64,000 bases of DNA from contig JACPLG010000008.1 in assembly GCA_016186625.1 (NCBI GenBank), forward strand, positions 80,689-144,688. Reading direction: 5' to 3'. The notes under the pieces were generated by a model. It had not been told where the DNA came from, did not search any database, and saw nothing but the letters and a program-made list of their open reading frames with translations. The DNA is from Candidatus Levyibacteriota bacterium. GTDB lineage: Bacteria; Patescibacteriota; Microgenomatia; Levybacterales; UBA12049. Both the position numbers and the translations under genes were made by a program. Below are positions 9 to 62,713 of this stretch, in pieces (within the stretch, counting starts at the first letter, position 1; each line of letters opens with the position of its first letter).

Positions 9-305
9 ATGCCAACAGAGGGACGCAGCACTAGATCGGAATATTTTGTGAAAGGTACAGAGCCAACAAGCGAATCCGGGGTTTATAAGAAAAAGGATGA
101 TAAAGTTTACATTTGGCTCCGTGAATCCGATCCCGTCTCAACCGACGGAAAAAATAGATGGCAGGAAGGAATAGACAAATGGATTGAGGAAGTGCATAAA
201 GATGACCCACTATATCATCCGCCCGGAGAAGTTATTAATCCTCCAAGTAGTAGTTCGGAGACTCCAACGCCAAGTCCCACCACTTCCCCCACGCCCGGGG
301 TGTAA
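9..305 (+). CDS. C-terminal part of a hypothetical secreted protein with a Pro/Thr/Ser-rich tail (the ORF probably starts upstream of the window)
   Basis: Open frame from the window edge; ends in TPTPSPTTSPTPGV, a linker typical of surface proteins here. No recognisable catalytic motif. Confidence 0.3.
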   Translation: MPTEGRSTRSEYFVKGTEPTSESGVYKKKDDKVYIWLRESDPVSTDGKNRWQEGIDKWIEEVHKDDPLYHPPGEVINPPSSSSETPTPSPTTSPTPGV

Positions 306-338
306 AGCTAAAACCACACCCGGGGTGGAATAGGGTGG
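303..338. repeat. Partial copy of REP-2 family (ACACCCGGGGTGGAAT...)
   Basis: Resembles TTTACACCCCGGGTGTGGATTTA repeats at 13318, 22176, 37848, 38588, 52316, 52824. Confidence 0.35.
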
Positions 339-13317: not shown

Positions 13318-13362
13318 TTTACACCCCGGGTGTGGATTTAAGTTTACACCCTAGGATTTGTG
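13318..13362. repeat. REP-2 copy (TTTACACCCCGGGTGTGGATTTAAGTTTACACCCTAGGA)
   Basis: Two-part repeat identical in structure to copies at 52316 and 52824. Confidence 0.65.
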
Positions 13363-13363
13363 T

Positions 13364-16385: not shown

Positions 16386-16467
16386 CCTCCAAGGGTTTCC
16401 CCATATGGTCCTAAACCATACGCGTCTGCCAATTTCGCCACCGGCCCGCAAATGGTATTATACCTTA
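16386..16467 (-). tRNA. tRNA-Leu (anticodon TAG), class II with long variable arm
   Basis: GGGCCGGTGGCGAAATTGGCAGACGCGTATGGTTTAGGACCATATGGGGAAACCCTTGGAGGTTCAAGTCCTCTCCGGCCTA. Confidence 0.8.
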
Positions 16468-16488
16468 CCCTCCAAAGGCGGGCAAGTT

Positions 16489-17049: not shown

Positions 17050-17247
17050 AGACGAATAATTAAAATCCCCCGCCAAGCGTTATACTTTGCGGGGAATTAA
17101 AAAATCCTAACGTATGCATTTGGAAAAGCACACCTTAGGATCTAGTTGCGCATTATACTACTAACTATAGGATTTGTCAAGTACTTACTAGAGGATAAAA
17201 TTGCTAATTTTGAGGCTAGAGACCGTAAGTTTGCCCCATGCGTGAGG

Positions 17248-17817
17248 TTACTTCAGCTCTTCCATGATGTGGGTTACGTTTTCAGCCCAATTATTTGTGT
17301 TTCTGGGGTTATATAGGGTGACAATTTCAAATGGCGTGACTAACCCCTTATCTCTATATTTTGTTGACAATGTTTTTGTAATTGTTTCTATCGCCTCAGG
17401 ATAATTATTAAATTTGATAACTTTTCCTCCATAAATTCCCCATCCCCAGCAGTTGTGAGAATTGGCAATTTCTTTTTTACAAAGAGTTGATTCTTGCATG
17501 GCTATTGCGGGAAGCAGCCTAAAATCAATATCATATCTTCGGGCTGCCGCAACAATATCGGCCGAGTATGGCTCAAGAGAAGATGAGTACTTGGCGAAAA
17601 ACTGTCTGACAATTTCTACTTTTGAGTCTTCTTCTTCAATTATATTTTGGATTGTAGTATCTGCGGGCGGAAGAGCAGCGTAAGCTATACCTTGTGTACT
17701 TTCCCCAAGCACCTCTCCCTTTTTACTCGAACTTATGTTAAGAAGAAGAGAAAGAGAAAAGATAAGAAGGAGCGGAGTGAGCGTAAAAAAACCTACAAGG
17801 GCAGCAATTTTCCTCAT
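17248..17817 (-). CDS. Paralogous secreted glucosaminidase-domain protein
   Basis: AIAMQESTLCKK...NCWGWGIYG; same architecture as 16489-17049. Confidence 0.45.
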   Translation of the reverse strand: MRKIAALVGFFTLTPLLLIFSLSLLLNISSSKKGEVLGESTQGIAYAALPPADTTIQNIIEEEDSKVEIVRQFFAKYSSSLEPYSADIVAAARRYDIDFRLLPAIAMQESTLCKKEIANSHNCWGWGIYGGKVIKFNNYPEAIETITKTLSTKYRDKGLVTPFEIVTLYNPRNTNNWAENVTHIMEELK

Positions 17818-18076
17818 GTAAATTATTCTGTCATTTCCCAGGTTTTGTGTCAACTGATCTCTACTATTTCAAACTACTAGACAATTGAGTAATTGAGGCT
17901 ATTCTGTTACAATGTCATTTGATCTTTTTAATTCCAAATAGTGCTCGCCTAGAGCGCTGGCATAGTTACCACCGCTCTAGAGCAACCTTATAGGAAGGAT
18001 CGTCGGGAAGCGGACCGAAGGGAGCTCGCCTGCTTGACAGGGGCGGGAACTGTAGGTTCTGTCCCGAGACTCACTC

Positions 18077-18148
18077 GCGGATGTAGTTCAGCGGTAGAAT
18101 GTCTCGTTGCCAACGAGAAGGTCGCCGGTTCGATCCCGGTCATCCGCT
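18077..18148 (+). tRNA. tRNA-Gly (anticodon GCC)
   Basis: GCGGATGTAGTTCAGCGGTAGAATGTCTCGTTGCCAACGAGAAGGTCGCCGGTTCGATCCCGGTCATCCGCT. Confidence 0.8.
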
Positions 18149-18150
18149 CA

Positions 18151-18645
18151 ATGAGAGCATTTCTGACAGAAGATTTAATTTGGGAGCTCATAAGAGTTAG
18201 TCTTGGATTTATAATGCTTTGGGCTTTTTTGGACAAGCTTTTGGGTCTTGGATTCGCAACTTCCAAGGAGGGCTCATGGCTTGAGGGTGTTTCGCCAACT
18301 GCCGGATTTTTAAAATTCGGAGCCGAAGGACCTTTTTCTCCCCTTTTTCAATCTTTCTCGGGAAGCCTTGTAATTGATTTGCTGTTTATGGCAGGACTTT
18401 TTCTTGTAGGAGCGTCCCTTATTTTGGGGATTGGAATAAAGATTGCAGGATATGCGGGAGCCCTAATGACGTTTTTAATATACTTGTCTCTTTTCCCGCC
18501 AGAGAACAATCCAATTATTGATGAGCACATTATTTACATTATTTTGTTTTTAGGATTGGCAAATACTCAAAAAGGAAGAAAATACAGCTTTTCCAAACAG
18601 TGGGCAACTCTCGATTTAGTTAAAAAATACCCGATTCTTGTTTAA
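18151..18645 (+). CDS. DoxX-family membrane protein
   Basis: ATG immediately after the tRNA; four hydrophobic segments; LDKLLGLGF...LKFG pattern. Confidence 0.45.
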   Translation: MRAFLTEDLIWELIRVSLGFIMLWAFLDKLLGLGFATSKEGSWLEGVSPTAGFLKFGAEGPFSPLFQSFSGSLVIDLLFMAGLFLVGASLILGIGIKIAGYAGALMTFLIYLSLFPPENNPIIDEHIIYIILFLGLANTQKGRKYSFSKQWATLDLVKKYPILV

Positions 18646-18653
18646 TGATTTTG

Positions 18654-18677
18654 CCTTCCCACATGGAATGTGGGAAT
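18654..18677. repeat. REP-1 copy (CCTTCCCACATGGAATGTGGGAA)
   Basis: Palindromic hairpin of the REP-1 family. Confidence 0.65.
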
Positions 18678-18703
18678 TCGGATTGAGCTGTTTATTCCCC
18701 TTC

Positions 18704-19510
18704 CTAGCCTCCCCAGCCGCGGGAGCGGGCGTGGTTAAGAGCAGCCTGCGTGTCACCACCGTAGGACTTTAGCCCCTGCTCCACCCCACCGTGCCTTGCT
18801 ATATAGTTTGCAGCTCCATGTATTGCGTCTACAGCGTTGTTTATATCTGCATTCCCGTTTCCATCTCCATCCACGCCATAAGCTGTCCACGTGCCCGGCA
18901 TAAACTGTAAGGGACCTTGAGCGCCTGTTCCATAGCCACTAGATATTGCTCCGTCCCTCCCTCCTGTTTCCATGATATGCAGGCCATACAGAATTTCCCA
19001 CGGCACGCCGTATTTTGAACCAGCTTGTTTATATACCTCGTCAAACGAGCCTGGCGCACCTTGGGCTTGAGTTGAGGCTCCGGCGACCGTGGTTTGGGCA
19101 GGTTCGATAGAAGGCGAGGGATCCGGTGCGGTTACCTCCTCGTAAATTTTTGCAAGTTTTTCAGAAAGCTTTTCTTCAGCATCTGGTTTAACAGCCAGCT
19201 TTATTTCCCAGCCAGTGTTAATTATTCGCGGGTCTTCAATCCAGGGATTATTATTCCAAAGAGTTGTCCAGAATTTTGAGGAGCCGTAATATTTTTGGGC
19301 AATACCATAAAGAGTATCACCGGAAACAACGGTGTGAGTTTTTGGTGGCTGTGGCGTAGGAGAAGGTGAGGTTGTAGGGCTTGAAATTTGAGAAATGTTG
19401 TTTTGAGGCGGCGGTGGAGGTTTGTTTTCGTCCTTTAAGATTGGCGAAATGATGGTTAAAAGAAAAATAGCTCCTACTACTACTCCTACCATAAAAGACG
19501 ATACTACCAA
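18704..19510 (-). CDS. Membrane-anchored LysM-domain lytic transglycosylase
   Basis: HTVVSGDTLYGIAQKYYG (LysM) and GPLQFMPGTWTAYGVDGDGNGNADI (SLT_2/MltB-like); SPTTSPSPTPQPP linker. Confidence 0.65.
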   Translation of the reverse strand: MVVSSFMVGVVVGAIFLLTIISPILKDENKPPPPPQNNISQISSPTTSPSPTPQPPKTHTVVSGDTLYGIAQKYYGSSKFWTTLWNNNPWIEDPRIINTGWEIKLAVKPDAEEKLSEKLAKIYEEVTAPDPSPSIEPAQTTVAGASTQAQGAPGSFDEVYKQAGSKYGVPWEILYGLHIMETGGRDGAISSGYGTGAQGPLQFMPGTWTAYGVDGDGNGNADINNAVDAIHGAANYIARHGGVEQGLKSYGGDTQAALNHARSRGWGG

Positions 19511-19564
19511 AGGGTAAATAATATGTCAAACCGAGGCTGAAAGGGTTTGTTTTATAGTTACATT

Positions 19565-19650
19565 TGGTGCGGATGAGAGGACTCGAACCTCCACGCTTTT
19601 TAGGGCACAGCCACCTCAAGGCTGCGTGTATACCGGTTTCACCACATCCG
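19565..19650 (-). tRNA. tRNA-Leu (anticodon GAG), CCA encoded
   Basis: GCGGATGTGGTGAAACCGGTATACACGCAGCCTTGAGGTGGCTG...GGAGGTTCGAGTCCTCTCATCCGCACCA. Confidence 0.75.
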
Positions 19651-19651
19651 C

Positions 19652-19777
19652 TCGCCACATGGGACAAACCTCACGGTTTTTCCCAACCTGCCCGCTAATG
19701 CTGCGCATAAGCGTTGCAGGCGGGCGATTTCCCTTTAGGGACCACAAAATCAGCACTCCCAATCCAACGATTTTGTG
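19652..19777 (-). repeat. Conserved tRNA-upstream element (copy 3, with a ~37-nt hairpin insertion)
   Basis: Minus strand: CACAAAATCGTTGGATTGGGAGTGCTGATTTTGTG...CCTAAAGGGAAATCG[insertion]GTTGGGAAAAACCGTGAGGTTTGTCCCATG; matches 20942-21023 and 34643-34730. Confidence 0.5.
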
Positions 19778-19815
19778 TCTTTTATTCTATCAAGATTAGG
19801 TTTAATTTGGAAGTG

Positions 19816-19898
19816 TACCGAGGAGAGGATTCGGACCTCCAATCTCTTGCGAGAACAGCGTTCTGAACGCTGCGCGTCTACCATTTCGCCACCTCGGC
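19816..19898 (-). tRNA. tRNA-Leu (anticodon CAG)
   Basis: GCCGAGGTGGCGAAATGGTAGACGCGCAGCGTTCAGAACGCTG...GGAGGTCCGAATCCTCTCCTCGGTA. Confidence 0.8.
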
Positions 19899-19971
19899 TT
19901 GAATTGATTATATCAAAAATGAGCGTAAAAAGTTGTTATACAAGGCTATCTTTGATAAAATTAGAGCACAT

Positions 19972-20042
19972 TGCCGAGTCGTCTAATGGTAGGACAACGG
20001 ACTTTGGATCCGTTTATTTTGGTTCGAATCCAAGCTCGGCAG
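19972..20042 (+). tRNA. tRNA-Gln (anticodon TTG)
   Basis: TGCCGAGTCGTCTAATGGTAGGACAACGGACTTTGGATCCGT...TTTGGTTCGAATCCAAGCTCGGCA; perfect 7-bp acceptor. Confidence 0.7.
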
Positions 20043-20074
20043 CGAGAAAACCATCCTATATAATTGCTACCTCT

Positions 20075-20578
20075 ATGGCTGATAATATAGAGCGAGTATT
20101 AAGACAAGTTGACAGAGAAAACCCTGGATCTAGAGATACTTCTGATCAGATAAGGGCAATCATGTGGCCTGCTGTTGTGGAAAAAGGGTTTCCTAGACAG
20201 GCTGTCCTTATTGATAACGAACCTTCAGTTTATAGACATCCTCTTTTTGATTTCGTGAATTCAGATGCAAGGTTAGCGATTGGAGAAGATGTTGTCCAGT
20301 TAACATTAACAGAAAATAGATTATTGATTGCATTATGTAGGGAGATTAATAGAGCTGTTTCAAGAGAAAGTTTATTGTCTGCTATAAGCACTGACCCTGC
20401 TTTAGACACAGACCCTAAAACCGTAAATGTTCATATAGGTCACTTGAGAAGAAAGATAGCGAATGGAAGGGAAATAGATAGTCCTATAGAAACCGTTAAG
20501 GGAATTGGATATAGACTTGTAGACCCAACAGTGCCAAACGGTTATGGCTATAGCCATCCGCAGCCTTCCTTGGGTTAA
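20075..20578 (+). CDS. Winged-helix transcriptional regulator (OmpR/PhoB C-terminal DNA-binding domain-like, no receiver domain)
   Basis: LTLTENRLLIALCREINRAVSRESLLSAIS...VNVHIGHLRRKIA...IETVKGIGYRL. The listed ORF start overlaps the tRNAs, so the start is placed at the internal ATG. Confidence 0.5.
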   Translation: MADNIERVLRQVDRENPGSRDTSDQIRAIMWPAVVEKGFPRQAVLIDNEPSVYRHPLFDFVNSDARLAIGEDVVQLTLTENRLLIALCREINRAVSRESLLSAISTDPALDTDPKTVNVHIGHLRRKIANGREIDSPIETVKGIGYRLVDPTVPNGYGYSHPQPSLG

Positions 20579-20941
20579 TCAGGCTAAGGCGGACAAGTCC
20601 CTCAGTGCCTACAATAATTATCTGATTCGAGAGGGAGACCCAGATGATGGATCGGCCGTAAGATCTCGCCCTCTTGGAATTTGAGGATCTGGTCTTCTTC
20701 CTGTAAGAAAAAAATATCTTATTGCTTCAGTCTCATGAGCGATTGCCCTTGGGCTCCCTGGTAAACCAGGATATCTGGGAGGCGGGCAACCAACGAGTGC
20801 GCGATCAGCAACAAATCTTTCTGGCATTTTCAATATACATAATACTTTATTACCCTTTTCAAATCAACTTCCTTGCCTCTTCCCCACGACTTTTGTATAA
20901 TTGTTTTCGATATAAGATAATTGCTCGCCTAATAAAGAGGA

Positions 20942-21023
20942 GCGAAATCGTTGGATTGAGAGTGTCGATTTCGCTACCCCTAAAGGGAAATCGTTGGGAA
21001 AAACCGCGAGGTTTGTCCCATTT
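20942..21023 (+). repeat. Conserved tRNA-upstream element (copy 1): two hairpins directly 5' of tRNA-Phe
   Basis: GCGAAATCG-TTGGATTGAGAGTGT-CGATTTCGC ... GGGAAAAACCGCGAGGTTTGTCCC. Confidence 0.5.
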
Positions 21024-21096
21024 AGCCGAGTTAGCCAAGTTGGTCAAGGCATCCGCCTGAAGAGCGGACTATCTCAGTTCGATTCTGAGACTCGGC
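21024..21096 (+). tRNA. tRNA-Phe (anticodon GAA)
   Basis: GCCGAGTTAGCCAAGTTGGTCAAGGCATCCGCCTGAAGAGCGGACTATCTCAGTTCGATTCTGAGACTCGGCA. Confidence 0.8.
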
Positions 21097-21161
21097 ACAA
21101 TTCGTTTATCCTGACGAGGTCGGAGGAGCTCACATCCTCAGCACAGTTCGAATTAAAATAA

Positions 21162-22127: not shown

Positions 22128-22262
22128 TTTCAATGGGGTCGGATTTGGGATTTTGGGAAATCGAAACCACCCCCGAAACCACCCCGGGGGTGGAATTAGG
22201 TTTACACCCTAGGAATTTTCTATAGATTTTTCCTCAATGGGGTCGGATTTGGGGTTTTGGCG
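22128..22262. repeat. REP-2 copy (22176-22218) flanked by ~30-bp direct repeats CAATGGGGTCGGATTTGGGRTTTTGG
   Basis: The second direct repeat encodes the MFS C-terminus (QNPKSDPIEEKSIE); the first is a duplicate downstream of the stop codon. Confidence 0.5.
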
Positions 22263-23474
22263 GCGGGCAAGGTATATAAAAGGAAGAGCTGCTAACTGAA
22301 AGACTGAAGATATTCCGTAAGATATAGGATAACCATAAATATCTGCCGTTTTCCCCAGGGCCGGCTGGATAACAACTCCTCCGCTTGATCCGAGAAGAGT
22401 ATCAAAAGAAAGAACTGTTGCCCTTTGTTCGCTTGGTATTAATCCATTAAGATACGCTTGGCGAATTGGCATTAGTGCAGCAAAAAGCAGTCCCCATAGG
22501 AAAATCAAGCCAATTACCAGCCAGAAATTATTGGCAAAAGCTACCAGAATAAGAATAAGGCCTGTTAAAAATGTTCCCAAAATTAAGGCTGAAGTCCGCT
22601 TTTTAAAAAGTCTTCGGATTCTTGATGCTGCAATTCCTCCTGCAATTTGTGAAAGTCCGGTAAGTGCGGCAATAATCCCTGCTATTGCATATGCTTCTTT
22701 ATCTCCATAAAGCTGCAGTAAAAATGGCTGAAGCGCATAAAAAATATAAAAGCTCACGCCTGTTGCAAAAGGAGCTGTAAACATGATGTAGCGAACAGGA
22801 GGATTCCGCAGCCCGTGGTCAATTGATCTTGAAAAGATTTTTTTCATTTCCAAAAAAGGCTGTTTTGTTTTTTTAGGCGAGAACCCAAGATCCTGCATTA
22901 AAACAAAAGCCGTTGCAAAGTTTATTAATAACACTACGGAGCGAAGAATATAGGGGACTCCAAGGTTAGTTACTTGAGCAATAACTCCCCCACTGATTGC
23001 ACCCGCAAGCATGGCCGTACCTCCAACAATTTGACCTTTTGCAAAAACTCCTTCAAGATGCCCTTTAAAATTTGTTGCATGGAGCGCATCCACCAGCCAC
23101 GCCTCAGTTGCGCCTGAGAAAAAGGTATATCCAAGTCCCAAAAGAACAGATGAGGCAGCCCATCCCCAAAACGGGCCTTGAATTTGCCACATATAAAGAT
23201 ATAGCGCGGTTGATACTGCAAGCGTGAGTGCCCCTAAAAGATAAGAAATACGGCGGCCGTAAGTATCTGCAACAATTCCGGTTGGTATCTCAAATATTAC
23301 GTAGCCTAATGAAAAGAATCCGTTTGCAAGAAATGCTTCAAAGTTAGACAGTCCAGCATCAAGAAGAAATATTGTATTTATCCCCCAGATAAAAGAAGTG
23401 GCCAGGGTGTTTCCTAAGATTAAATAAAGATAGATTGTTTGGATATTACTTGGTTTTCTTAACAATCGAAGCAT
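22209..23474 (-). CDS. MFS transporter
   Basis: 12 TM segments; GIVADTYGRRISYLLG (MFS loop 2-3 motif). Confidence 0.7.
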   Translation of the reverse strand: MLRLLRKPSNIQTIYLYLILGNTLATSFIWGINTIFLLDAGLSNFEAFLANGFFSLGYVIFEIPTGIVADTYGRRISYLLGALTLAVSTALYLYMWQIQGPFWGWAASSVLLGLGYTFFSGATEAWLVDALHATNFKGHLEGVFAKGQIVGGTAMLAGAISGGVIAQVTNLGVPYILRSVVLLINFATAFVLMQDLGFSPKKTKQPFLEMKKIFSRSIDHGLRNPPVRYIMFTAPFATGVSFYIFYALQPFLLQLYGDKEAYAIAGIIAALTGLSQIAGGIAASRIRRLFKKRTSALILGTFLTGLILILVAFANNFWLVIGLIFLWGLLFAALMPIRQAYLNGLIPSEQRATVLSFDTLLGSSGGVVIQPALGKTADIYGYPISYGISSVFQLAALPFIYLARRQNPKSDPIEEKSIENS

Positions 23475-29057: not shown

Positions 29058-30032
29058 TCACTTACTTTTTCCTAAAATCAAAGCAAGGAGTGCCATTCGG
29101 ATATACATACCGTTTCTAATTTCCGAGCGAAGGTACACCGCATTTGGATTTTTATCAACTTCCGGAAGTATTTCGCCAACGCGGGGCAAAGGGTGCATAA
29201 AAATCGTGTTTTTACCAGCCCTCTCTTTTATAAGTTTGTTATCAAGTACAAAGCGATTTTTTACCTTTTCATACGCGCTTTCGGACTTAAACCTTTCTTT
29301 TTGAACTCTTGTCCAATACCAAAAATCCGCATTTTTTGGAATATCTTTCTCCGATTCAATTTCTACCAACTCTAGCTTCCCACTTTCCATGTGGGAACTC
29401 AGATCTTCCCTGCTTAATCGAAGCTCTTTTGGGGAAAGAAGATAAAGTTTATTACCATTGAACTTTGAGAGACCCCGGATTAATGAATGGATTGTTCTTC
29501 CATTTAACATATCTCCTGCCAAAACTCCTATTAAATTATCTAGTTTTTTTGTTCGCTCATAAATTGTATAAAGGTCAAGCAAAGCTTGTGTGGGGTGTTC
29601 TCCGATTCCGTCACCTGCATTGATAACAGGAACAAACCCAGCTGCCTGGGCTGCCTTAAGCGTCGCTCCTTTCTTTGGATGCCTGAGGACAATTACATCA
29701 CAGTAAGCCTCAAAAACCCTGATCGTATCCTCAAGACTTTCCCCCTTTGAAACCGATGAAAAATGTTCTGGATCAAGAATTTCAACAGTTGAGCCTCCAA
29801 GTTGTTTTACTGCTGCGACAAATGATCCGAAGGTTCTACTTGACGGTTCATAAAAAATAAGGGTAACAATGTTACCCTTAAGAAGATCCGAAGGTCTTGC
29901 GTTTTTGGCAATTAGAAGCATGCCCACGGTTTTCTTAAAAAGAATAGATATGTCCTTAGGGGAAAATTGATCCAGAGAAATAATATCTTTACCTTTGTAT
30001 TTACCATTTATGGGCTCAATCGGACTGACCAT
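29058..30032 (-). CDS. pyrB: Aspartate carbamoyltransferase catalytic subunit
   Basis: FYEPSSRTFGSF (STRTR-type motif), MHPLPRVGEI (HPLPR, ATCase-type rather than OTCase HCLP); adjacent to carAB. Confidence 0.8.
   Translation of the reverse strand: MVSPIEPINGKYKGKDIISLDQFSPKDISILFKKTVGMLLIAKNARPSDLLKGNIVTLIFYEPSSRTFGSFVAAVKQLGGSTVEILDPEHFSSVSKGESLEDTIRVFEAYCDVIVLRHPKKGATLKAAQAAGFVPVINAGDGIGEHPTQALLDLYTIYERTKKLDNLIGVLAGDMLNGRTIHSLIRGLSKFNGNKLYLLSPKELRLSREDLSSHMESGKLELVEIESEKDIPKNADFWYWTRVQKERFKSESAYEKVKNRFVLDNKLIKERAGKNTIFMHPLPRVGEILPEVDKNPNAVYLRSEIRNGMYIRMALLALILGKSK
29376..29397. repeat. REP-1 copy lying in-frame inside pyrB (encodes ...SSHMESGK...)
   Basis: CTTCCCACTTTCCATGTGGGAA within the pyrB ORF. 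Confidence 0.6.
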
Positions 30033-31093: not shown

Positions 31094-31097
31094 TGTA

Positions 31098-31120
31098 CCT
31101 TCCCACATGGAAAGTGGGAA
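31098..31120. repeat. REP-1 copy flanking RAYT-1
   Basis: CCTTCCCACATGGAAAGTGGGAA. Confidence 0.7.
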
Positions 31121-31128
31121 CACAGAAT

Positions 31129-31776
31129 TCAGTCATCGATGTCGATTAGAGAATCAAAAAGCGCCGGGTCAATATCATTAGTTTCCTCGACAAAACTTTG
31201 ATAGTCTCTTTCTGGATTCGATCGCGCAAAATAAGAAAGAATAAAACCTGTATCACAAAAAACATGTTTTTCCCCATAAATATAGTTACAATAAGACGAA
31301 TATGGGTAAACTCTACATTCACACATGGAAAGTGGGAAAGGGTTTCGGTGAATATATTTTGACAGTTGCAGAAGATGCCCATCGCTTTCAATATACTTTG
31401 CTTTAAAACTTCCTTGAAACAGTGGTCCTACTCTATCGTACTTAGTATTGAAATACCTTGTATAACTGTCTGATAATTTTCTTAGAAAGTGTGTAATGCC
31501 ATTATCGGTTAATTGTTTGACTAGGAGATGAAAATGGTTAGGCATCAAGCAAAAACAAAAAATACTTACTAGTTCTGTTTGGCTGTCTACTTTCTTAAGT
31601 TTAACGATTCCCCTTCTGTAGTCAGATAGTTTCATGGGCTGAGGAGATTTTCGATAAAAGTCCAGAGTTTCTAAAAATCTAAGATAGTCCCACCTATCCA
31701 AAAAGATATCTCTTTTTTCCACACCTCTATTATAAATGTGGAAGAATCCGTCGGTGATAAAAGGAGGATTCTTCAT
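31129..31776 (-). CDS. REP-associated tyrosine transposase (RAYT; IS200/IS605 TnpA-like HUH Y1 transposase), family 1
   Basis: HIYNRGV, MPNHFHLLV (HUH), YIHRNP (catalytic Tyr); flanked by REP-1 copies on both sides. Confidence 0.8.
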   Translation of the reverse strand: MKNPPFITDGFFHIYNRGVEKRDIFLDRWDYLRFLETLDFYRKSPQPMKLSDYRRGIVKLKKVDSQTELVSIFCFCLMPNHFHLLVKQLTDNGITHFLRKLSDSYTRYFNTKYDRVGPLFQGSFKAKYIESDGHLLQLSKYIHRNPFPLSMCECRVYPYSSYCNYIYGEKHVFCDTGFILSYFARSNPERDYQSFVEETNDIDPALFDSLIDIDD

Positions 31777-31806
31777 AAGCGTAATATATTAATTTAACCA
31801 TAAGTA

Positions 31807-31831
31807 CCTTCCCACATGTCAAGTGGGAAGG
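31807..31831. repeat. REP-1 copy flanking RAYT-1
   Basis: CCTTCCCACATGTCAAGTGGGAAGG. Confidence 0.7.
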
Positions 31832-31896
31832 TAAACTTTCCCTCTGGAGCTTGGGTTTGATATGCGCTTCTTATCCTTGTATAATATTAGCTACGC

Positions 31897-31979
31897 GCCG
31901 CGGTGGTGGAATGGTAGACACGAAGGCCTTAAGAGCCTTTGCCCTCACGGGTGTGAGAGTTCGAGTCTCTCTCGCGGTA
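31897..31979 (+). tRNA. tRNA-Leu (anticodon TAA), preceded by a TTGTATAAT -10
   Basis: GCCGCGGTGGTGGAATGGTAGACACGAAGGCCTTAAGAGCCTT...GAGAGTTCGAGTCTCTCTCGCGGTA. Confidence 0.8.
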
Positions 31980-31981
31980 CC

Positions 31982-32015
31982 GGGGACTAGCTCAGTTGAA
32001 GTAGCGACTAATTTT
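31982..32015 (+). pseudogene. tRNA 5'-fragment (acceptor + D-arm only)
   Basis: GGGGACTAGCTCAGTTGAAGTAGCGACTAATTTTC then intact tRNA-Pro begins. Confidence 0.3.
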
Positions 32016-32089
32016 CGGGGTGTAGCGTAGTTGGCTAGCGCGCCTCGTTTGGGACGAGGAGGTCGTCGGTTCGAATCCGACCACCCCGA
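32016..32089 (+). tRNA. tRNA-Pro (anticodon TGG)
   Basis: CGGGGTGTAGCGTAGTTGGCTAGCGCGCCTCGTTTGGGACGAGGAGGTCGTCGGTTCGAATCCGACCACCCCGA. Confidence 0.8.
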
Positions 32090-32099
32090 CTGGAAGTAT

Positions 32100-32411
32100 T
32101 TAAGGTTGGCCTTCTTCGAGATATGGGACGGGAATATCAGTTTCTAGTGCCCTATTTGATAATGCTACTTCTATGGCTCCAATTTGCTCATCAGTTGGAT
32201 CAGGTATGTCTCTCTTTGCAGCAATTGTTGCTGTGCTCCATCTTACATCAGCATGAAACCTTCGATCAATTTCAGCAACAAAACTTGGGTCAGGACCATC
32301 TAATTCTTCCGTTGTGTGGGATTGCTCATTTAGCCCAGGTCCATTAACTACTCGTGGAATAAAGGGAATCGGTCCTAAAAATGCCTCGTGTCTTGAAGAA
32401 CTATTTGCCAT
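32100..32411 (-). CDS. Hypothetical acidic protein
   Basis: 103 aa; GC-richer; weak RBS; no motif. Confidence 0.3.
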   Translation of the reverse strand: MANSSSRHEAFLGPIPFIPRVVNGPGLNEQSHTTEELDGPDPSFVAEIDRRFHADVRWSTATIAAKRDIPDPTDEQIGAIEVALSNRALETDIPVPYLEEGQP

Positions 32412-32466
32412 AATTAATCCGCAATATAAATCATCTATAGCTATAAGTCAAGAAAGCAGAATCTGA

Positions 32467-32598
32467 GCGGGTGAAGGGAATCCCATTCGACTTCGCTCAG
32501 GGTAAACTTCTCATCCCTTCACGCTGGATTCCACCAGCCCACCGCGAATGGTGAGCAATTCGTCATGAGCTCATTGTCGAATGACTTGTCGAATCCAG
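32467..32598. repeat. MITE-like element at the tRNA-Gly 3' end, bounded by a partial duplicate of the tRNA 3' end (GAGCGGGTGAAGGGAATCCC)
   Basis: Intact tRNA 3' AGAGCGGGTGAAGGGAATCGAACCC at 32598-32621 and partial copy at 32467-32488; between them ATTCGAC...GTCGAATGACTTGTCGAA. Confidence 0.5.
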
Positions 32599-32669
32599 AG
32601 CGGGTGAAGGGAATCGAACCCTCGTATCCACTTTGGAAAAGTGGTGTTCTGCCATTGAACTACACCCGC
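32599..32669 (-). tRNA. tRNA-Gly (anticodon TCC)
   Basis: GCGGGTGTAGTTCAATGGCAGAACACCACTTTTCCAAAGTGGATACGAGGGTTCGATTCCCTTCACCCGCT. Confidence 0.8.
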
Positions 32670-34772: not shown

Positions 34773-34845
34773 GCGCCCGTAGCTCAACGGATAGAGCAAG
34801 ACGGTTCTAACGTCAAGGTTGGGGGTTCGATTCCCTCCGGGCGTG
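34773..34845 (+). tRNA. tRNA-Arg (anticodon TCT)
   Basis: GCGCCCGTAGCTCAACGGATAGAGCAAGACGGTTCTAACGTCAAGGTTGGGGGTTCGATTCCCTCCGGGCGTG. Confidence 0.75.
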
Positions 34846-34855
34846 CAAGTATGGT

Positions 34856-37847: not shown

Positions 37848-37903
37848 TTTACACCTTTACACCCCGGGTGTGGATTTACCTTGACACCCCAGGGATTTAG
37901 ATT
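37848..37903. repeat. REP-2 copy flanking RAYT-2
   Basis: CTTTACACCTTTACACCCCGGGTGTGGATTTACCTTGACACCCCAGGGA. Confidence 0.65.
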
Positions 37904-37917
37904 TAAAGTTAGTTTAT

Positions 37918-38580
37918 ATGCCAAGAAGGAGATTTGTTTTAGCTACCAATGAAACTTACCACATATATAACAGGTCTGTTGCTAAGGAGTCGATATTTTC
38001 TTCAGCTACTTGTTTAAACAAGATAATCGAGATATCAGACTATTATCGATACCATCAAGAGCTTAGGCTGTCTAAGTTTAAAAAATTACCCGTTGATCAG
38101 AAAAAGAGCTATTTAGATTCGATTAAGAACAGGGAGAAACTTGTAGACATCTATTCATTTGCTTTTATGCCTAATCACTACCATTTCTTATTGAAACAAC
38201 TGGTCGATAATGGAATCGTAAATTTTATTTCTAATTTTCAAAATAGTTTTGCTAAATACTTTAATATAAAAAATGATCGAAACGGTGCTTTATTTCTGAA
38301 CCCCTTTAAAGGAAAAAGAATAGAGTCTGAAGACCAGTTTGTTCATGTCTCAAGATATATTCACCTAAATCCTGTCACTTCATACTTGGTTGAGTTTAAA
38401 GACTTACCAGATTATCCTTGGACTTCTTTTAGAATCTACCATTACGGTTTAAATTTATTTGTAAATACTAAGCTGATACTGGAGAGTTTTAAATCCATAA
38501 AGAGTTATTACAATTTTGTGGAAGATCAAGTAGATTATCAAAGAAGTCTTGCTTTAATAAAGGATTTAGTTCTTGAGTGA
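37918..38580 (+). CDS. REP-associated tyrosine transposase (RAYT), family 2
   Basis: HIYNRSV, MPNHYHFLL (HUH), YIHLNP (Tyr); flanked by inverted REP-2 copies. Confidence 0.8.
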   Translation: MPRRRFVLATNETYHIYNRSVAKESIFSSATCLNKIIEISDYYRYHQELRLSKFKKLPVDQKKSYLDSIKNREKLVDIYSFAFMPNHYHFLLKQLVDNGIVNFISNFQNSFAKYFNIKNDRNGALFLNPFKGKRIESEDQFVHVSRYIHLNPVTSYLVEFKDLPDYPWTSFRIYHYGLNLFVNTKLILESFKSIKSYYNFVEDQVDYQRSLALIKDLVLE

Positions 38581-38587
38581 TTTACCT

Positions 38588-38630
38588 AATATCCTAGGGT
38601 GTAAACCTAAATTCACCCCCGGGGTGTATG
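38588..38630. repeat. REP-2 copy (inverted orientation) flanking RAYT-2
   Basis: CTAGGGTGTAAACCTAAATTCACCCCCGGGGTGTA. Confidence 0.65.
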
Positions 38631-39392: not shown

Positions 39393-39467
39393 GGTGGATG
39401 TAGCTCAGTGGTAGAGCTCCTGGTTGTGGTCCAGGTGGCCGCGGGTTCGATCCCCGTCATCCACCCA
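39393..39467 (+). tRNA. tRNA-His (anticodon GTG) with G(-1)
   Basis: gGTGGATGTAGCTCAGTGGTAGAGCTCCTGGTTGTGGTCCAGGTGGCCGCGGGTTCGATCCCCGTCATCCACCCA. Confidence 0.8.
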
Positions 39468-39898
39468 TTCGACTCACTTCGTTCGCTCATGGCTGTAAGC
39501 CGGAGTCGAATGTCCTGAGTTCATCGAAGGACAAAATGTCTTTTTTCATTTACATTCTCCGTAGCTCATCCAATCAACTATATATTGGACAAACGAATAA
39601 TTTTGAAAATCGGACAAAGCAACATATTGCAAAAGATTGTAAAGCAGCGAAATTTACTAAAGATCATGAAGACTTCAAGCCCGTTTATAAAGAGGAGTAC
39701 CCTACAAGATTAGAAGCAATGAGAAGAGAAGCACAGATTAAAAAATGGTCAAGAGCAAAAAAAGAAGCGCTTATTGCAGGAAATTTGAAAGAACTTAAAA
39801 ATTTAAGCAAAAAGAAATAGTAAGTGAGATCATCGAGCCTGAGCCTGAGGTTCACTTCAGAGTCGAAGACCTGTCGAACCATCCCCGTCATCCACCCA
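39468..39898 (+). mobile_element. Minimal tRNA-integrated cassette: GIY-YIG nuclease gene bounded by a 16-bp direct repeat of the tRNA-His 3' end and ATTCGAC.../...GTCGAACC termini
   Basis: CCCCGTCATCCACCCA at 39453-39468 and again at 39883-39898; left end ATTCGACTCACTTCGTTCGCTCA, right end GAGTCGAAGACCTGTCGAACCAT. Confidence 0.55.
39536..39820 (+). CDS. GIY-YIG nuclease-domain protein (UPF0213/YhbQ-like)
   Basis: FFIYILRSSSNQLYIGQTNNFENRTKQH matches the GIY-YIG core. Confidence 0.7.
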   Translation: MSFFIYILRSSSNQLYIGQTNNFENRTKQHIAKDCKAAKFTKDHEDFKPVYKEEYPTRLEAMRREAQIKKWSRAKKEALIAGNLKELKNLSKKK

Positions 39899-52177: not shown

Positions 52178-52315
52178 AACTTTATTATAGACTTATTTAA
52201 CAAGAAAAGTTGGAGGAAAAAGTATGTCAGGGGTAATTATAGCAGAAGATACCATATTTTAAGAACAAGAAAATCCTTAAGATTACATCCAAGCGTAAAT
52301 TCAAGCTTACACAGT

Positions 52316-52358
52316 TTACACCCCGGGGGTGGATTTAGCTTTACACCCCAGGATTTAA
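52316..52358. repeat. REP-2 copy upstream of C39-like gene
   Basis: TTTACACCCCGGGGGTGGATTTAGCTTTACACCCCAGGA. Confidence 0.65.
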
Positions 52359-52404: not shown

Positions 52405-52806
52405 GTGTCTATGAAAGCCGTGAGACAAGAGCATTTTTCAGGATGTGCTGTTGCTTGTGTTGCATTTGTTTTACGAACAAACTATAAAAGCGCACTTAAG
52501 AGTTTTGATAAAGGTTCGGAAAGAGCCCGAATTCGTGGTTTTTATAGCCGCGAGATTATTGTTGCACTTGAAAGAAATGGGCTTAAATACGCTCTTAAAT
52601 ATGTGGGAAGAAAAAAGAATGATGATTACCCTAAAGGCACAATTGTCTTTACCAAGAGAGACTCAAAACGACCTTTCGGACATTATCTTTGCAAAACAGA
52701 AAAAGGATGGATGGATCCATGGATAAATTTCCCAAGACTGAGTGCTAAAGCCGGCTTTCGCAAACACCTCCCCGGAAAAGCAGTTTATGCAATAATAAAA
52801 CATTGA
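52405..52806 (+). CDS. Small peptidase C39-like (papain-fold) domain protein
   Basis: SGCAVACVAFVL (Cys) and FGHYLC...GWMDPW (His, Trp), in the order expected of C39-like peptidases. Confidence 0.45.
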   Translation: MSMKAVRQEHFSGCAVACVAFVLRTNYKSALKSFDKGSERARIRGFYSREIIVALERNGLKYALKYVGRKKNDDYPKGTIVFTKRDSKRPFGHYLCKTEKGWMDPWINFPRLSAKAGFRKHLPGKAVYAIIKH

Positions 52807-52823
52807 AATTTCCGCTCCTAGGT

Positions 52824-52866
52824 TTACACCCCGGGTGTGGATTTAGCTTTACACCCCAGGAGTTTG
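52824..52866. repeat. REP-2 copy downstream of C39-like gene
   Basis: TTTACACCCCGGGTGTGGATTTAGCTTTACACCCCAGGA. Confidence 0.65.
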
Positions 52867-56397: not shown

Positions 56398-57972
56398 TCA
56401 AGAGCCTATATTTAGTGTGAAGCCAAGAGGCTTAACGCTATTCCACTTCTCTTTGGTTATCTCTTTAAGTGTTGAGTTTTTTATTAAGAGACAGGATGGG
56501 TTTCCATTTATCGAGAGTCTCTCATAGTTTTGTTCAATTTCTAGCAAATATGCTCTATGTTTTTTGTTCTGCCCAAAACAGGCATCAAAGTAAAAATCAG
56601 GCGGCTTGCTTTCAAACATAAGCAATCTATCTTCTTTAAATCTATCAATTAATGGCATATGGGCTGTGTACCACGTATGCTGATATGCGGAGGGCCTATT
56701 TGCAATCCAATAAATTAAGTCATCTCTTTCTTCAACAAATATTGTGTCATTTTCTTTTGATAATAACTTAATAGCACTACCGTACGTAAATTCCTGGGCA
56801 TAATTAGTATTAAATTCCGAAACACGGTCAATCTTTTCCCAAATAAAAAAACTAGGAGAGATAAAAATAAAAATTGCCATAACAAAAAAAGGCATCAAAA
56901 AATTGAATCTGAGCTTTTTATTCCAAGCGTTAAATAATTCAAAAACGATTAGAAAAGTAACAAAGATAAAAAGGCCATACCAAACATTCATATGGTATGC
57001 CTCATAAAACATTTTCCCAGGCACCGTTGGTCTAATATTTGAAATTGCTAGAATTATAAACATAATAATAAATCCAACCCTTTTTAATTTAAAAGAATAA
57101 AAGATACCGGCCGATAGAAAAACGGCACTGAAGAAAATTAAAATTTGCCTTAGTAAATTATTTTCACCTTCAGTAAAAATACGAAGAGGATATGAGAGGG
57201 TATTTAAAATTCCCAGGCCATAAACATTATTTCCCCTCAGCTCTTGTCCGATTATTTCTTTATTATAAAAATAGACATTTAATAAGAAATCCTTAACGGA
57301 AACAGTCAGTATTGATACGAGCGAAAGCGTTACAAAAATTGCCAAGGAATAAGCTTTCTTTTTTAAGTCTTTTCTGCCAACAAGGACCATTAGTAACAAG
57401 ATTATAGAAAGAGGCGCATACGGCTCTCGTATTGCCGCACAAAACCAGCCAAATACTCCAGCTAGTATATAGTCAAGCTTAGATAATTCTCTTTCGTTTA
57501 CTTTCTCCCAAACTATACCCACCAAATACATTAAAGGGTATATTATGAAACTTTCTCCTAAGAAATGGTCGCCAAAAACGTAAAATTTTGTTGCCTCAAA
57601 AAAAATTAATGCCAAAGCAGCTTTAATCCTAAATCTTAAAATGAGTAGAATTCCAAATGCAAAAGAAAATAAAAATAGAAAAATTTTGTGTATAAGAATT
57701 AAAGAATAAATTGTGCTCGGCTGGGAAATTTTTTGAATTAAAAAACTAATAAACGGAAGCAGAAAACTGTGGTTAAAGAAAAAATCTACATAGATTTCCT
57801 TGCCATTTAGTAAGAAATACCCTCCCATGTAGTTAAAACAATCATCAAAACAACCAAAAGCCGCTAAGCGCTGATAATAAAAATAAGTGAAGAAAAGAAA
57901 AACTCCGCAGTATGCTATAAATGCCGTTAGGAGAGTCTTGTTGTCTAAAACAATTTTTTTAAGCCTATCCAC
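56398..57972 (-). CDS. Polytopic membrane protein (possible GT-C-type glycosyltransferase)
   Basis: More than 12 TM segments and a C-terminal soluble domain; family assignment uncertain. Confidence 0.35.
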   Translation of the reverse strand: MDRLKKIVLDNKTLLTAFIAYCGVFLFFTYFYYQRLAAFGCFDDCFNYMGGYFLLNGKEIYVDFFFNHSFLLPFISFLIQKISQPSTIYSLILIHKIFLFLFSFAFGILLILRFRIKAALALIFFEATKFYVFGDHFLGESFIIYPLMYLVGIVWEKVNERELSKLDYILAGVFGWFCAAIREPYAPLSIILLLMVLVGRKDLKKKAYSLAIFVTLSLVSILTVSVKDFLLNVYFYNKEIIGQELRGNNVYGLGILNTLSYPLRIFTEGENNLLRQILIFFSAVFLSAGIFYSFKLKRVGFIIMFIILAISNIRPTVPGKMFYEAYHMNVWYGLFIFVTFLIVFELFNAWNKKLRFNFLMPFFVMAIFIFISPSFFIWEKIDRVSEFNTNYAQEFTYGSAIKLLSKENDTIFVEERDDLIYWIANRPSAYQHTWYTAHMPLIDRFKEDRLLMFESKPPDFYFDACFGQNKKHRAYLLEIEQNYERLSINGNPSCLLIKNSTLKEITKEKWNSVKPLGFTLNIGS

Positions 57973-58084
57973 TTATTCATTATAATACTTTTAAGTTTTT
58001 TAAAAACTGATCTATTTTGAGCATTTGTATTCTACTTTTGTTCTATTGATATTCGTAAAAATTTCTCATATATTGGTTAGGTAT

Positions 58085-58200
58085 GCCCTTTACTGCTCAG
58101 AATACATTTTTCGCCTCGTTCTCTTCGATTCCACTCAGGGTAAACAGGGTAAATCTTGTTCGTATACTCAGAAAAATCTTCAAAATGTATATGTTCTGGT
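58085..58200. repeat. MITE-like repeat copy upstream of dinB
   Basis: cgattccactcagggtaaacagggtaaa shares CTCAGGGTAAAC with the element at tRNA-Gly. Confidence 0.3.
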
Positions 58201-58216
58201 TTTTGGCTTAAAGTAG

Positions 58217-58239
58217 CTTCCCACATGGAAAGTGGGAAG
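58217..58239. repeat. REP-1 copy
   Basis: CTTCCCACATGGAAAGTGGGAAG perfect palindrome. Confidence 0.7.
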
Positions 58240-58253
58240 CAAGTTCTTATTAT

Positions 58254-59528
58254 TTGTTTATGAAACGAGTGATTCTTCATATTGACTTCGATTCGTATTT
58301 TGCATCTTGCGAACAGCAGTTTGACCCAACGCTGCGAGGCAAACCGATTGGAGTTACCGCAACAAACGGCAGGACTTGTATTATTGCCGCAAGTAGAGAA
58401 GCTAAAAAGCTTGGAATTCCCAGCGTTTCAAGAGTTTGGGAGGCGCGGAAGGTTTGCCCGCAGCTAATTACAGTTGGGGCTCATTTTGAAAAATATTGGG
58501 AAATAACCAAGCTTTTCTTAAATATTTGCAAAGATTACTCCCCTTATGTTGAGCTATTTTCACTGGATGAAGTATTTATTGACATAACTGGGACAGAAAA
58601 TTTGTTCGGCGGAAGATATAAGATTGTTGGGACAATAAAAAGCAGAGTGGAAAAAGAAATTGGTGAATATATTACTGTTTCAGTCGGACTTTCTTACAAC
58701 AGACTTCTTGCCAAACTTGCTTCAGGACTGAATAAACCTAATGGTTTCGTTGAGATTGGCCCAACGGACGTTGAGAAAGTTTATTCAAAAATAAAATTAA
58801 CAGATTTTTGTGGGATTGGGGCTCGTATTGAGCGGCGCTTAAACAAGATTGGTATTTATACTCCTTTACAGCTTCGTGCCGCCTCTTTGGAAGTTTTGAT
58901 TGCCGAATTTAAAGACGTTGAAGGTCATTTTTTGAAAAAATTAGGTTTGGCCCAAGATGATTCGGAAGTTATCCCCTATTATTTAGGAGGAGAAACCAAG
59001 TCTGTAGGTAGAAGTTATTGTCTTCCAAAGAACGAATATGATCAAAGGGTAATTTTACAAAACATATATGAACTTTGCGAAGAAATAGGGATAAAGCTTC
59101 GCCGGCTAAACAAAAAAGCAAAAACCATTGGGCTGTATTTGGGAGGAGGACAAAATCATCACGGTAGAAAAACGGTAACCGATTATATTGACTGGGGTTC
59201 TGATATTTTTGGTTTGTGCAAGGCTTTATATAACGAATGGGAGTTTGAAAAACTATCTCGCGAGGAAGGAATGGTAAGGCAAATCAGTGTTTGGGCCGGA
59301 AATTTAGAAGACGGTTCGAACCTAACCCTATTGCTTTTTGATCAGCCCAAAAGTTCAAAACTCCAAAAAGCAGTAGATCAAATAAATGAAAGATTTGGGG
59401 ATCACACAATTAGAAATGGTTTTGTTCACAACTGCCCAAATCTTAAGACTGTACCCAATGGCTATATGGCAGATAAATTTGAAAGACAAAAATTAGCGAA
59501 GGAGTTCAGAGACTACATACAAAATTAG
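58254..59528 (+). CDS. dinB: Y-family DNA polymerase IV
   Basis: ILHIDFDSYFASCE (Y-family motif I), SVGLSYNRLLAKLAS, HhH region. Confidence 0.85.
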   Translation: MFMKRVILHIDFDSYFASCEQQFDPTLRGKPIGVTATNGRTCIIAASREAKKLGIPSVSRVWEARKVCPQLITVGAHFEKYWEITKLFLNICKDYSPYVELFSLDEVFIDITGTENLFGGRYKIVGTIKSRVEKEIGEYITVSVGLSYNRLLAKLASGLNKPNGFVEIGPTDVEKVYSKIKLTDFCGIGARIERRLNKIGIYTPLQLRAASLEVLIAEFKDVEGHFLKKLGLAQDDSEVIPYYLGGETKSVGRSYCLPKNEYDQRVILQNIYELCEEIGIKLRRLNKKAKTIGLYLGGGQNHHGRKTVTDYIDWGSDIFGLCKALYNEWEFEKLSREEGMVRQISVWAGNLEDGSNLTLLLFDQPKSSKLQKAVDQINERFGDHTIRNGFVHNCPNLKTVPNGYMADKFERQKLAKEFRDYIQN

Positions 59529-60315: not shown

Positions 60316-60329
60316 ATAACTATATTAAT

Positions 60330-62698: not shown

Positions 62699-62713
62699 TT
62701 GTAGGCCTCCGGC

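Follow-up and report, generated by a model that had tools for sequence, protein, structure and literature searches.

A REP-associated tyrosine transposase-like gene bracketed by inverted copies of a dispersed two-part repeat, and a diverged paralogue with a different repeat, in a Levybacteria genome

We analysed one 64-kb stretch, called hereafter the window, of a Candidatus Levybacteria metagenome-assembled genome (Microgenomates, within the candidate phyla radiation, CPR/Patescibacteria); all window counts refer to this stretch. It contains two genes resembling those of REP-associated tyrosine transposases (RAYTs; REP, repetitive extragenic palindromic sequence) and two families of short repeats, REP-1 and REP-2. 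The gene considered first, RAYT-2 (37918..38580, + strand), encodes a 220-aa protein of the Y1 HUH tyrosine nuclease/transposase type. The original prediction had recognised it as a second, distinct RAYT, with the motifs HIYNRS, NHYHFLL and YIHLNP, and had placed inverted copies of REP-2 on its two sides. Both points were confirmed, the open reading frame (ORF) being enclosed by an imperfect 43-nt inverted repeat (37858-37900 and 38586-38628) whose arms are 79% complementary. The other gene, RAYT-1 (31129..31776, -), encodes a paralogous Y1 HUH protein of 215 aa with the motifs NHFH and YIHRNP. The two proteins correspond to MBI2621616.1 (RAYT-2) and MBI2621608.1 (RAYT-1; 100% identical), and both genes lie on one 238,547-bp contig.

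The upstream flank of RAYT-2, copy A of the element (37848..37900, +), is composed of a partial extra half-site (TTTACACC, 37848-37855), part 1 (TTTACACCCCGGGTGTGGATTTA, 37856-37878) and part 2 (TTGACACCCCAGGG, 37881-37894). Copy B, the downstream flank (38586..38630, -; TACACCCCGGGGGTGAATTTAGGTTTACACCCTAGGA), is inverted relative to A. Five further copies are dispersed in the window, and the positions first given for them (303, 13318, 22176, 52316 and 52824) were right to within a few bases. Copy C (13318..13356, +) ends 5 nt off the 3' end of a tRNA-Val gene (13362-13434, -). Copy D (22168..22214, +) is a variant (GAAACCACCCC...) with a tandemly duplicated 5' half-site, and the TAG with which a major facilitator superfamily (MFS) transporter gene (22209-23474, -) stops is contributed by part 2 of this copy. 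Copies E (52315..52353, +) and F (52823..52861, +), which share their orientation and differ at 1 nt of 39, lie upstream and downstream, respectively, of a 133-aa ORF (52405-52806). Copy G (293..338, -), found downstream of pheT (345-2411, -), is a variant as well, its 5' half-site being duplicated (ATTCCACCC twice). All five dispersed copies are located between called ORFs, D reaching the transporter stop codon, and the genes near them are housekeeping ones (pheT, tRNA-Val, the MFS transporter, a NUDIX hydrolase and others).

To estimate the number of copies expected by chance, the 30-nt core pattern CACCCCGGGKGTGNNNTTANNTTKACACCC was searched in the window and in 100 dinucleotide-preserving shuffles of it. 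The window gave seven matches, at 298-327(-), 13322-13351(+), 22180-22209(+), 37860-37889(+), 38597-38626(-), 52319-52348(+) and 52827-52856(+), and no shuffle (0/100) gave any, so that seven copies are far beyond chance. Similarly, an nhmmer profile built from the seven window copies recovered exactly these seven full copies (E 1e-13 to 1e-17) and no additional full copy in the window. An exact 23-mer is common to copies A, C and F, and the near-identity among copies fits recent copying.

REP-2 is a bipartite element of about 40 nt, in which a palindrome, CACCC-NNN-GGGTG (part 1), is followed after a spacer of about 8 nt by part 2, TTKACACCC-AGGA. Each arm reads part 1 (TTTACACCCCGGGKGTGGATTTA), two bases, then part 2 (TTKACACCCYAGGA), and an alignment of 25 REP-2 type elements gave the consensus T.CACCCC.GGGGTGGATTTAG.TTGACACCC.AGGA. 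Direct repeats of ACACCC occur inside the element at spacings of about 10 and 25 nt, and T-rich sequence (TTTA, ATTC, GAAAC) adjoins the CACCC stem on its 5' side. As single-stranded DNA, REP-2 could fold in two ways, either into a 5-bp hairpin within part 1 or, in most window copies, through pairing between part 2 and the right arm of part 1, with 12 nt left as a loop. Both pairings were compatible with the 25 elements, with 92% (part-1 hairpin) and 85.5% (part-1 right arm with part 2) of the cells paired.

A partial tandem duplicate of the 5' half-site was observed 8-12 nt upstream of part 1 at several copies, in the window (37848-37855, 22168-22179, 328-338 and 52307-52314) and also in two homologous loci (L011, ~9930-9945; L014, ~470-484). 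Examples are TTTACACC before TTTACACCCC, GAAACCACCCCC before GAAACCACCCC, and ATTCCACCCT before ATTCCACCCC. Of the 7 window copies, 2 had a strict CACCC in the upstream half-site (binomial p ~0.003) and 4 had a looser form of it. These duplicates may be a footprint of target choice or insertion.

In RAYT-2, the conserved motifs are YHIYNRS (residues 14-20), NHYHFLL (86-92), NFQN (106-109) and YIHLNP (147-152). The HUH histidines would be H87 and H89, in NHYH, and the catalytic tyrosine Y147, in YIHLNP. A structure model predicted a TnpA-like fold of the Y1 transposase superfamily, with Y147 within a helix (138-149) and a helical C-terminal tail (residues ~160 to 219); this tail had no Pfam match (helix-turn-helix-like, HTH-like), even at E 10. 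The sole NCBIfam match was to the REP-associated tyrosine transposase model NF047646 REP_Tyr_transpos (E 2.8e-11). Most close homologues carry a precomputed match to Pfam PF01797 (Y1_Tnp), against which RAYT-1 scores 35.7. A phmmer search of PDB sequences with RAYT-2 returned zero matches, and a RAYT-2 family profile gave marginal matches to ISDra2 TnpA only (E 0.03); since the PDB sequence searches were silent or marginal, it is the predicted fold that links RAYT-2 to TnpA_REP. H87, H89, Y147, N151 and P152 were invariant in an alignment of 22 RAYT-2 type sequences. Of the 120 best homologues, 111 had both NH[YF]H and the Y---NP form of the tyrosine motif, which is YIHLNP in RAYT-2. Taken together, these weak but consistent family matches and the five invariant residues mark RAYT-2 as a Y1 HUH enzyme of the RAYT branch, as judged from its sequence. 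The RAYT-2 type family comprised 1065 search matches, full length and about 60% identical, and is evidently under clear purifying selection. A tblastn search of plasmids with RAYT-2 gave distant matches only (22-32% identity), annotated 'transposase' or unannotated.

RAYT-1 is accompanied by another repeat. REP-1 is a hairpin, TTCCCAC-loop-GTGGGAA, present on the 3' side of the gene (31096..31124; TACCTTCCCACATGGAAAGTGGGAA) and on its 5' side (31805..31833), where the loop reads TTGACAT on the gene strand, a -35-like box, and the predicted DNA fold has an energy of -11.8 kcal/mol (z -5.6). Four more REP-1 copies were found in the window, at 9529, 18656, 29377 and 58218. Within the window RAYT-2 is flanked by REP-2 only and RAYT-1 by REP-1 only, in agreement with the exclusive association first proposed. 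The claim made alongside it, that nothing beyond the catalytic motifs is common to the two proteins, was wrong: they are full-length homologues, with 38% identity and 56% positives over 207 residues (BLASTP, E 1e-41). Identity between the RAYT-1 and RAYT-2 families was 28-49% (median 36%), whereas the median within each family was 60-66%. A recent duplication, which would have undermined the proposal of two systems, was ruled out by the 38% identity and the clean separation of the families. Both families have proteins of about 215-225 aa, with named members from Levybacteria, Daviesbacteria and other Microgenomates, and the RAYT-1 type family gave at least 7964 search matches. By these comparisons RAYT-1 and RAYT-2 are old paralogues, belonging to two large Microgenomates families.

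REP-1 hairpins were also seen inside coding sequences. In RAYT-1 type genes, one lies right after the catalytic YIHRN[PSA], in the window (31318-31338) and in three Daviesbacteria contigs that served as RAYT-1 comparison loci (L015, 10440; L016, 10440; L017, 10476). It encodes F-P-L-x-x-W-E, of which the stem codons are conserved across the family and the two 'loop' residues are variable; the window copy is slightly degenerate (TTCACAC...GTGGGAA, FPLSMCE). A complete in-frame REP-1 (TTCCCACATGGAAAGTGGGAA, 29377-29397) is located within an aspartate/ornithine carbamoyltransferase ORF (29058-30032, -), where it encodes SSHMESGK in the C-terminal Pfam domain of the enzyme. It has the look of a REP inserted within a gene whose product tolerates it.

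To examine whether the two pairings extend beyond the window, RAYT-2 type loci were collected (n=7: the window, L001, L004 and L011-L014; proteins 56-100% identical to RAYT-2). In all seven the gene is bracketed by the inverted two-part REP-2 architecture. The RAYT-1 relatives in the three Daviesbacteria contigs have TCCCAC-loop-GTGGGA hairpins on both sides and no REP-2-like element. Conversely, a REP-1-type hairpin was not found at the RAYT-2 type genes in the loci examined, where the only loose match to REP-1 was a CCCCAC-loop-GTGGGG palindrome about 400 nt downstream of the gene in L004. Both gene-repeat pairings thus appear to have existed before these lineages diverged. In other Microgenomates genomes, too, REP-1 type elements go with RAYT-1 type genes and REP-2 type elements with RAYT-2 type genes, which supports two separate cognate systems, the simplest reading of the data; that the two act independently, each with a protein-DNA specificity of its own, we infer.

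We consider that RAYT-2 and its flanks are probably a unit of the REPtron/TIRtron type, in which a RAYT-like Y1 HUH gene, present once in the window and inherited vertically, stands between two inverted copies of its cognate bipartite element of about 40 nt. By analogy with the TnpA_REP of Escherichia coli and the TnpA of IS608 (PMC3479197, PMC8266576, PMC6006769), RAYT-2 would bind REP-2 on single-stranded DNA and would cleave beside it by means of the HUH-bound metal and Tyr147, with formation of a 5'-phosphotyrosyl intermediate. It would thereby have copied the unit of about 40 nt to other intergenic sites, giving the five extra copies in 64 kb.

An alternative is that RAYT-2 is an inactive relic, REP-2 having spread earlier, possibly by means of another enzyme such as RAYT-1, so that the association is only historical. 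It could be argued from the Pfam score of RAYT-2, just under the cut-off, and from the fact that its activity is deduced only. We give it very little credence: the catalytic residues listed above are invariant, the family is full length and under clear purifying selection with more than 1000 homologues, and RAYT-1 relatives were never accompanied by REP-2 type elements in the loci examined.

The REPtron/TIRtron-type reading also supposes that the gene is inherited vertically. The window holds one gene of each type and no near-identical duplicate of either in its 64 kb. RAYT-2 is neighboured by NadE and a rhomboid protease, with no tnpB partner. The homologue in L014, 79% identical to RAYT-2, keeps an upstream NadE, itself 75% identical; this synteny points to vertical descent of RAYT-2, with divergence at about the pace of a housekeeping gene. 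Around more distant homologues, the neighbours differ. In three other genomes (60 kb in total), REP-2 type elements were found at the flanks of the RAYT-2 type gene only. The exact REP-2 core occurred at 2 loci in GTDB species-representative genomes and at 4 in metagenome contigs of the Joint Genome Institute (JGI), the source genome not being among the matches. Five of these loci, in Levybacteria RIFCSPLOWO2_01_FULL_38_21 and matching metagenome contigs, are apparently one solo copy, identical in sequence and flanks. The confinement to gene flanks in other genomes and the rarity of the exact core indicate that the dispersal of REP-2 is a lineage-specific amplification.

These data also bear on the possibility that the 0.8-kb repeat-gene-repeat segment is an autonomous insertion sequence (IS) of the IS200/IS605 kind, a mobile 'TIRtron', and that the dispersed REP-2 copies are its solo ends, or derivatives resembling miniature inverted-repeat transposable elements, and not products of a domesticated enzyme. 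The fold does belong to the Y1 transposase superfamily, gene neighbours differ in every distantly related genome examined, and Bertels et al. (PMC5581495) found that, among the RAYT groups, group 1 comes closest to an IS, some of its genes being duplicated and some lying on plasmids. However, the window has a single RAYT-2 and no near-identical second gene, and its tyrosine motif is Y---NP, versus Y---Q in IS200 (PMC6006769 Table 1). A tnpB partner is absent, NadE and the rhomboid protease standing beside the gene, and the NadE neighbourhood persists beside a homologue whose protein is 79% identical, RAYT-2 having diverged about as fast as NadE. The ends are inverted copies of one element, whereas IS608 has distinct left and right hairpins on one strand, and the dispersed copies are whole 40-nt units, not gene fragments. 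More generally, IS200/IS605 elements with TnpA (IS608, ISDra2) combine Y---Q, multiple near-identical copies, often tnpB, and distinct left and right hairpins on one strand, and none of these features was seen for the RAYT-2 unit in the window. A mobile IS is accordingly a quite unlikely explanation.

We return to the REPtron/TIRtron-type unit, whose upstream element may have a second role. A promoter-like site, TTGACA-17 nt-TAAAGT (37881..37909, +), scored 10 of 12 matches in a scan, its -35 hexamer lying in part 2 of copy A. The -10 hexamer TAAAGT ends 8 nt before the RAYT-2 ATG, which implies a leaderless or near-leaderless mRNA. TTGACA stands 35-39 nt ahead of the start codon in the upstream copy of all seven RAYT-2 type loci, and in five of the seven a recognisable -10-like hexamer follows 17 nt after it (TATAAT in L012). 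Downstream and dispersed copies mostly have TTTACA or other variants in place of TTGACA. TTGACA was thus present in 7/7 upstream copies versus 2/14 other copies (Fisher p 3e-4, for loci that are phylogenetically non-independent). Likewise, the upstream REP-1 hairpin of RAYT-1 and its relatives carries TTGAC(A/G) in the loop. This arrangement suggests leaderless transcripts with a -35 box inside the presumed binding site of the enzyme, a placement that makes autoregulation of RAYT-2 possible: bound at its own upstream element, where TTGACA would be the -35 box, RAYT-2 could repress its own gene.

The same features could be read differently, REP-2 being a host regulatory or structural site under selection (a protein site on double-stranded DNA, a weak promoter, a terminator or an mRNA stabiliser) that the Y1 protein uses or regulates and did not spread. 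In keeping with this, part 2 is -35-like (TTKACA), copies are found at gene ends, where the scan marked terminator-like features (37856-37874, 37879-37894 and 38626-38614), covariation gives the single-stranded hairpin no support, and the ACACCC repeats, at their spacings of about 10 and 25 nt, are as expected of repeated duplex binding sites. Yet other genomes of the family have the element only beside the gene, and a general host function limited to one lineage is hard to see. The near-identical dispersed copies (E and F; the 23-mer of A, C and F) fit recent copying, the partial tandem half-sites and the stop codon supplied by copy D look like insertion events, and a hairpin with a T-poor tail makes a poor intrinsic terminator. 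We therefore regard a host site that the enzyme did not spread as unlikely.

Several findings weigh against the REPtron/TIRtron-type reading that we favour. RAYT-2 scored 22.5 bits (E 1.3e-4) against PF01797, a marginal miss of the gathering cut-off of 23, and 43.5 bits against NF047646 REP_Tyr_transpos, for which the equivalog cut-off is 80. The REP-2 hairpin is short (5 bp), and the energies predicted for its single-stranded folding, -5 to -12 kcal/mol with z from -0.03 to -2.8, are modest. Covariation was absent for both pairings in the 25 elements, not exceeding that of shuffles, because the stems are invariant, and REP-2 may instead be recognised as double-stranded DNA, through its palindrome or its direct repeats. 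The GT[AG]G guide tetranucleotide of canonical REPs was missing from both strands of REP-2, which is therefore not a canonical REP. As a result, the description of REP-2 as a two-part REP stands for the two-part repeat and fails for the canonical REP, given the missing GT[AG]G foot, the 5-bp hairpin and the lack of covariation. The seven loci behind the TTGACA comparison are, as stated, not independent. Finally, no insertion polymorphism or empty site was found for REP-2, the sole independent assembly covering only 57826-63430 of the window; this 5.6-kb assembly is 100% identical to the window over a stretch that holds one REP-1 and zero REP-2 copies.

The closest described relatives are the TIRYT/TIRtron systems (Di Nocera et al. 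2013, PMC3733652), equivalent to TnpA_Y1 subclass 2.1 (Quentin et al. 2018, PMC6006769) and to RAYT group 1 (Bertels et al. 2017, PMC5581495). Subclass 2.1 has the signature NH[YF]H, FQ or W[EQ], and Y[IV]HLNP, in long proteins with a C-terminal tail and no canonical REP (PMC6006769 Table 1). The tail is HTH-like, with similarity to Bac_DnaA_C, HTH_23 or HTH_28, and the median length is 238 aa. TIRYT genes are flanked by terminal inverted repeats (TIRs) sharing GGGGWSAS, and some TIR families are moderately abundant (PMC3733652). RAYT-2 resembles them in having NHYH, the exact YIHLNP and FQ at the 'W' position (NFQN), in being longer (220 aa) than IS200 TnpA, with a C-terminal tail and, within the window, low copy number, and in being flanked by inverted repeats that are not GTAG REPs. 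The homologue flanks GTCACCCC (L001, L012) read GGGGTGAC on the complement, a match to GGGGWSAS, and the window flank TACACCCC reads GGGGTGTA, with one mismatch to it. RAYT-2 differs in its host, a member of the CPR/Patescibacteria, and in a tail without a Pfam HTH-like match; moreover, REP-2 is clearly dispersed, whereas REP-like repeats are absent from the account that Quentin et al. give of subclass 2.1. The motif signature and the flanking inverted repeats of RAYT-2 fit TIRYT/subclass 2.1, not the RAYTs of canonical GTAG REPs; within the subclass this is a putative placement, made by motif signature.

The E. coli TnpA_REP (RayT/YafM; PDB 4ER8; Messing et al. 2012, PMC3479197; Corneloup et al. 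2021, PMC8266576) shares with RAYT-2 the HUH and single-tyrosine active site, and in its REPtron, too, a gene present once lies between inverted cognate repeats, of which further copies are scattered through intergenic DNA. Sequence identity to RAYT-2 is, however, just 14-15%. The repeats of E. coli, hundreds in number, are imperfect palindromes of greater length that carry a GTAG guide on the 5' side, and they are often joined in pairs as BIMEs (bacterial interspersed mosaic elements) or REPINs. REP-2 units are single, lack GTAG, and consist of a 5-bp palindrome and a second, direct half-site. A REPIN is a mobile unit of two inverted REPs forming one long hairpin (Bertels & Rainey 2011, PMC3116915). 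This organisation was not found for REP-2: the five dispersed copies are single units of two direct half-sites, and the closest pair, E and F, is 508 bp apart in direct orientation.

More than one tnpAREP gene may be present in a genome, with a separate REP family for each (PMC6006769 section 12; PMC3733652), as in S. maltophilia, K. versatilis and P. fluorescens, and several TIRYT genes with different TIR families coexist in S. maltophilia K279a and in K. versatilis. That a genome has several RAYTs, each with its own repeat, is thus already established (Pseudomonas, Stenotrophomonas, Koribacter). Genomes with multiple REPIN-RAYT systems (P. fluorescens SBW25, S. maltophilia; Nunvar et al. 2010, PMC2817692; Bertels & Rainey 2011, PMC3116915) resemble the window in having diverged RAYT paralogues, two here, each with its own dispersed intergenic repeat family. 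Those genomes, of 6-7 Mb, have group 2/3 RAYTs and GTAG REPs arranged as inverted doublets (REPINs) in hundreds of copies, whereas the window has single non-canonical units in a host from the CPR, a group of reduced genomes.

What appears new is the host range, CPR/Patescibacteria. Full-text literature searches found no paper linking RAYT/REP elements to CPR/Patescibacteria, Microgenomates or Levybacteria. To our knowledge, work on RAYT/REP systems has so far dealt almost wholly with Proteobacteria and Cyanobacteria. These systems are among the foremost cases of domesticated transposases that have sequence populations of their own inside the genome. Their known range would be extended to a phylum where reduced genomes would not be expected to keep repeats without reason. 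Besides the host phylum, the new details are the bipartite repeat, its lineage-specific amplification and the TTGACA at the -35 position in every upstream copy. RAYT-1 and RAYT-2, enzymes 38% identical with very different DNA elements, form a clean natural pair for specificity swaps, and the promoter-like site within the element makes it possible to test whether binding of the element is tied to expression of the enzyme gene. A wider proposal would join all these points: an undescribed, phylum-wide pair of domesticated RAYT-like systems, in which the cognate element doubles as the gene promoter (the -35 box lying in part 2 for REP-2 and in the loop for REP-1) with built-in autoregulation, REP-2 being a fifth REP type recognised in a way unlike that of E. 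coli TnpA_REP, and which would actively reshape CPR intergenic DNA. Taken as a whole, we hold it doubtful.

Other arrangements of the genes and elements were noted. In L007 (957-1075, -), a 5'-altered RAYT-like gene, 45% identical to RAYT-2 and without the N-terminal YHIxNRS strand, is followed by its own diverged element, a near-perfect REP-2 and what seems to be all that is left of a further RAYT-2 type gene, its 3' end (...GLE*). This REP-2 was considered as the cognate flank of the 45%-identical homologue; the idea was dropped, as the homologue has its own diverged element and the REP-2 abuts the apparent RAYT-2 type remnant. The arrangement suggests that such units decay and turn over. 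On L006 (CAZFNO010000012.1), a contig binned as 'uncultured Gammaproteobacteria' and probably a mis-binned CPR contig, a REP-2 type element was found at 672-716, where part-2 motifs stand on either side of it. In the window, the direct copies E and F bracket the 133-aa ORF, which has no Pfam match and could be a gene cassette bounded by REP-2 repeats. Its N-terminal stretch GCAVACVAF is loosely like what we take to be the active-site region of cysteine peptidases.

An Rfam scan of the window detected tRNA families only, and its GC skew gave no replication-direction signal with which an orientation bias of the copies could be tested. The window has 13 tRNA genes in 64 kb (sites 13362-13434, 16365-21098, 31897-32669, 34773-34846, 39394-39466 and 63902-63974); copy C lies 5 nt from tRNA-Val, and RAYT-1 about 120 nt from tRNA-Leu. 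RAYT-1 is located between a D-Ala-D-Ala carboxypeptidase gene and tRNA-Leu/tRNA-Pro, whereas the RAYT-1 type gene (~10001-10680) has one common position in L015-L017, with a class I tRNA-synthetase gene (tRNA-synt_1b) on one side and the ATP synthase operon, by its atpB end, on the other. A small GIY-YIG ORF (39536-39820) follows tRNA-His in the window, and small GIY-YIG ORFs are also found near the RAYT-2 homologues in L011 and L013.

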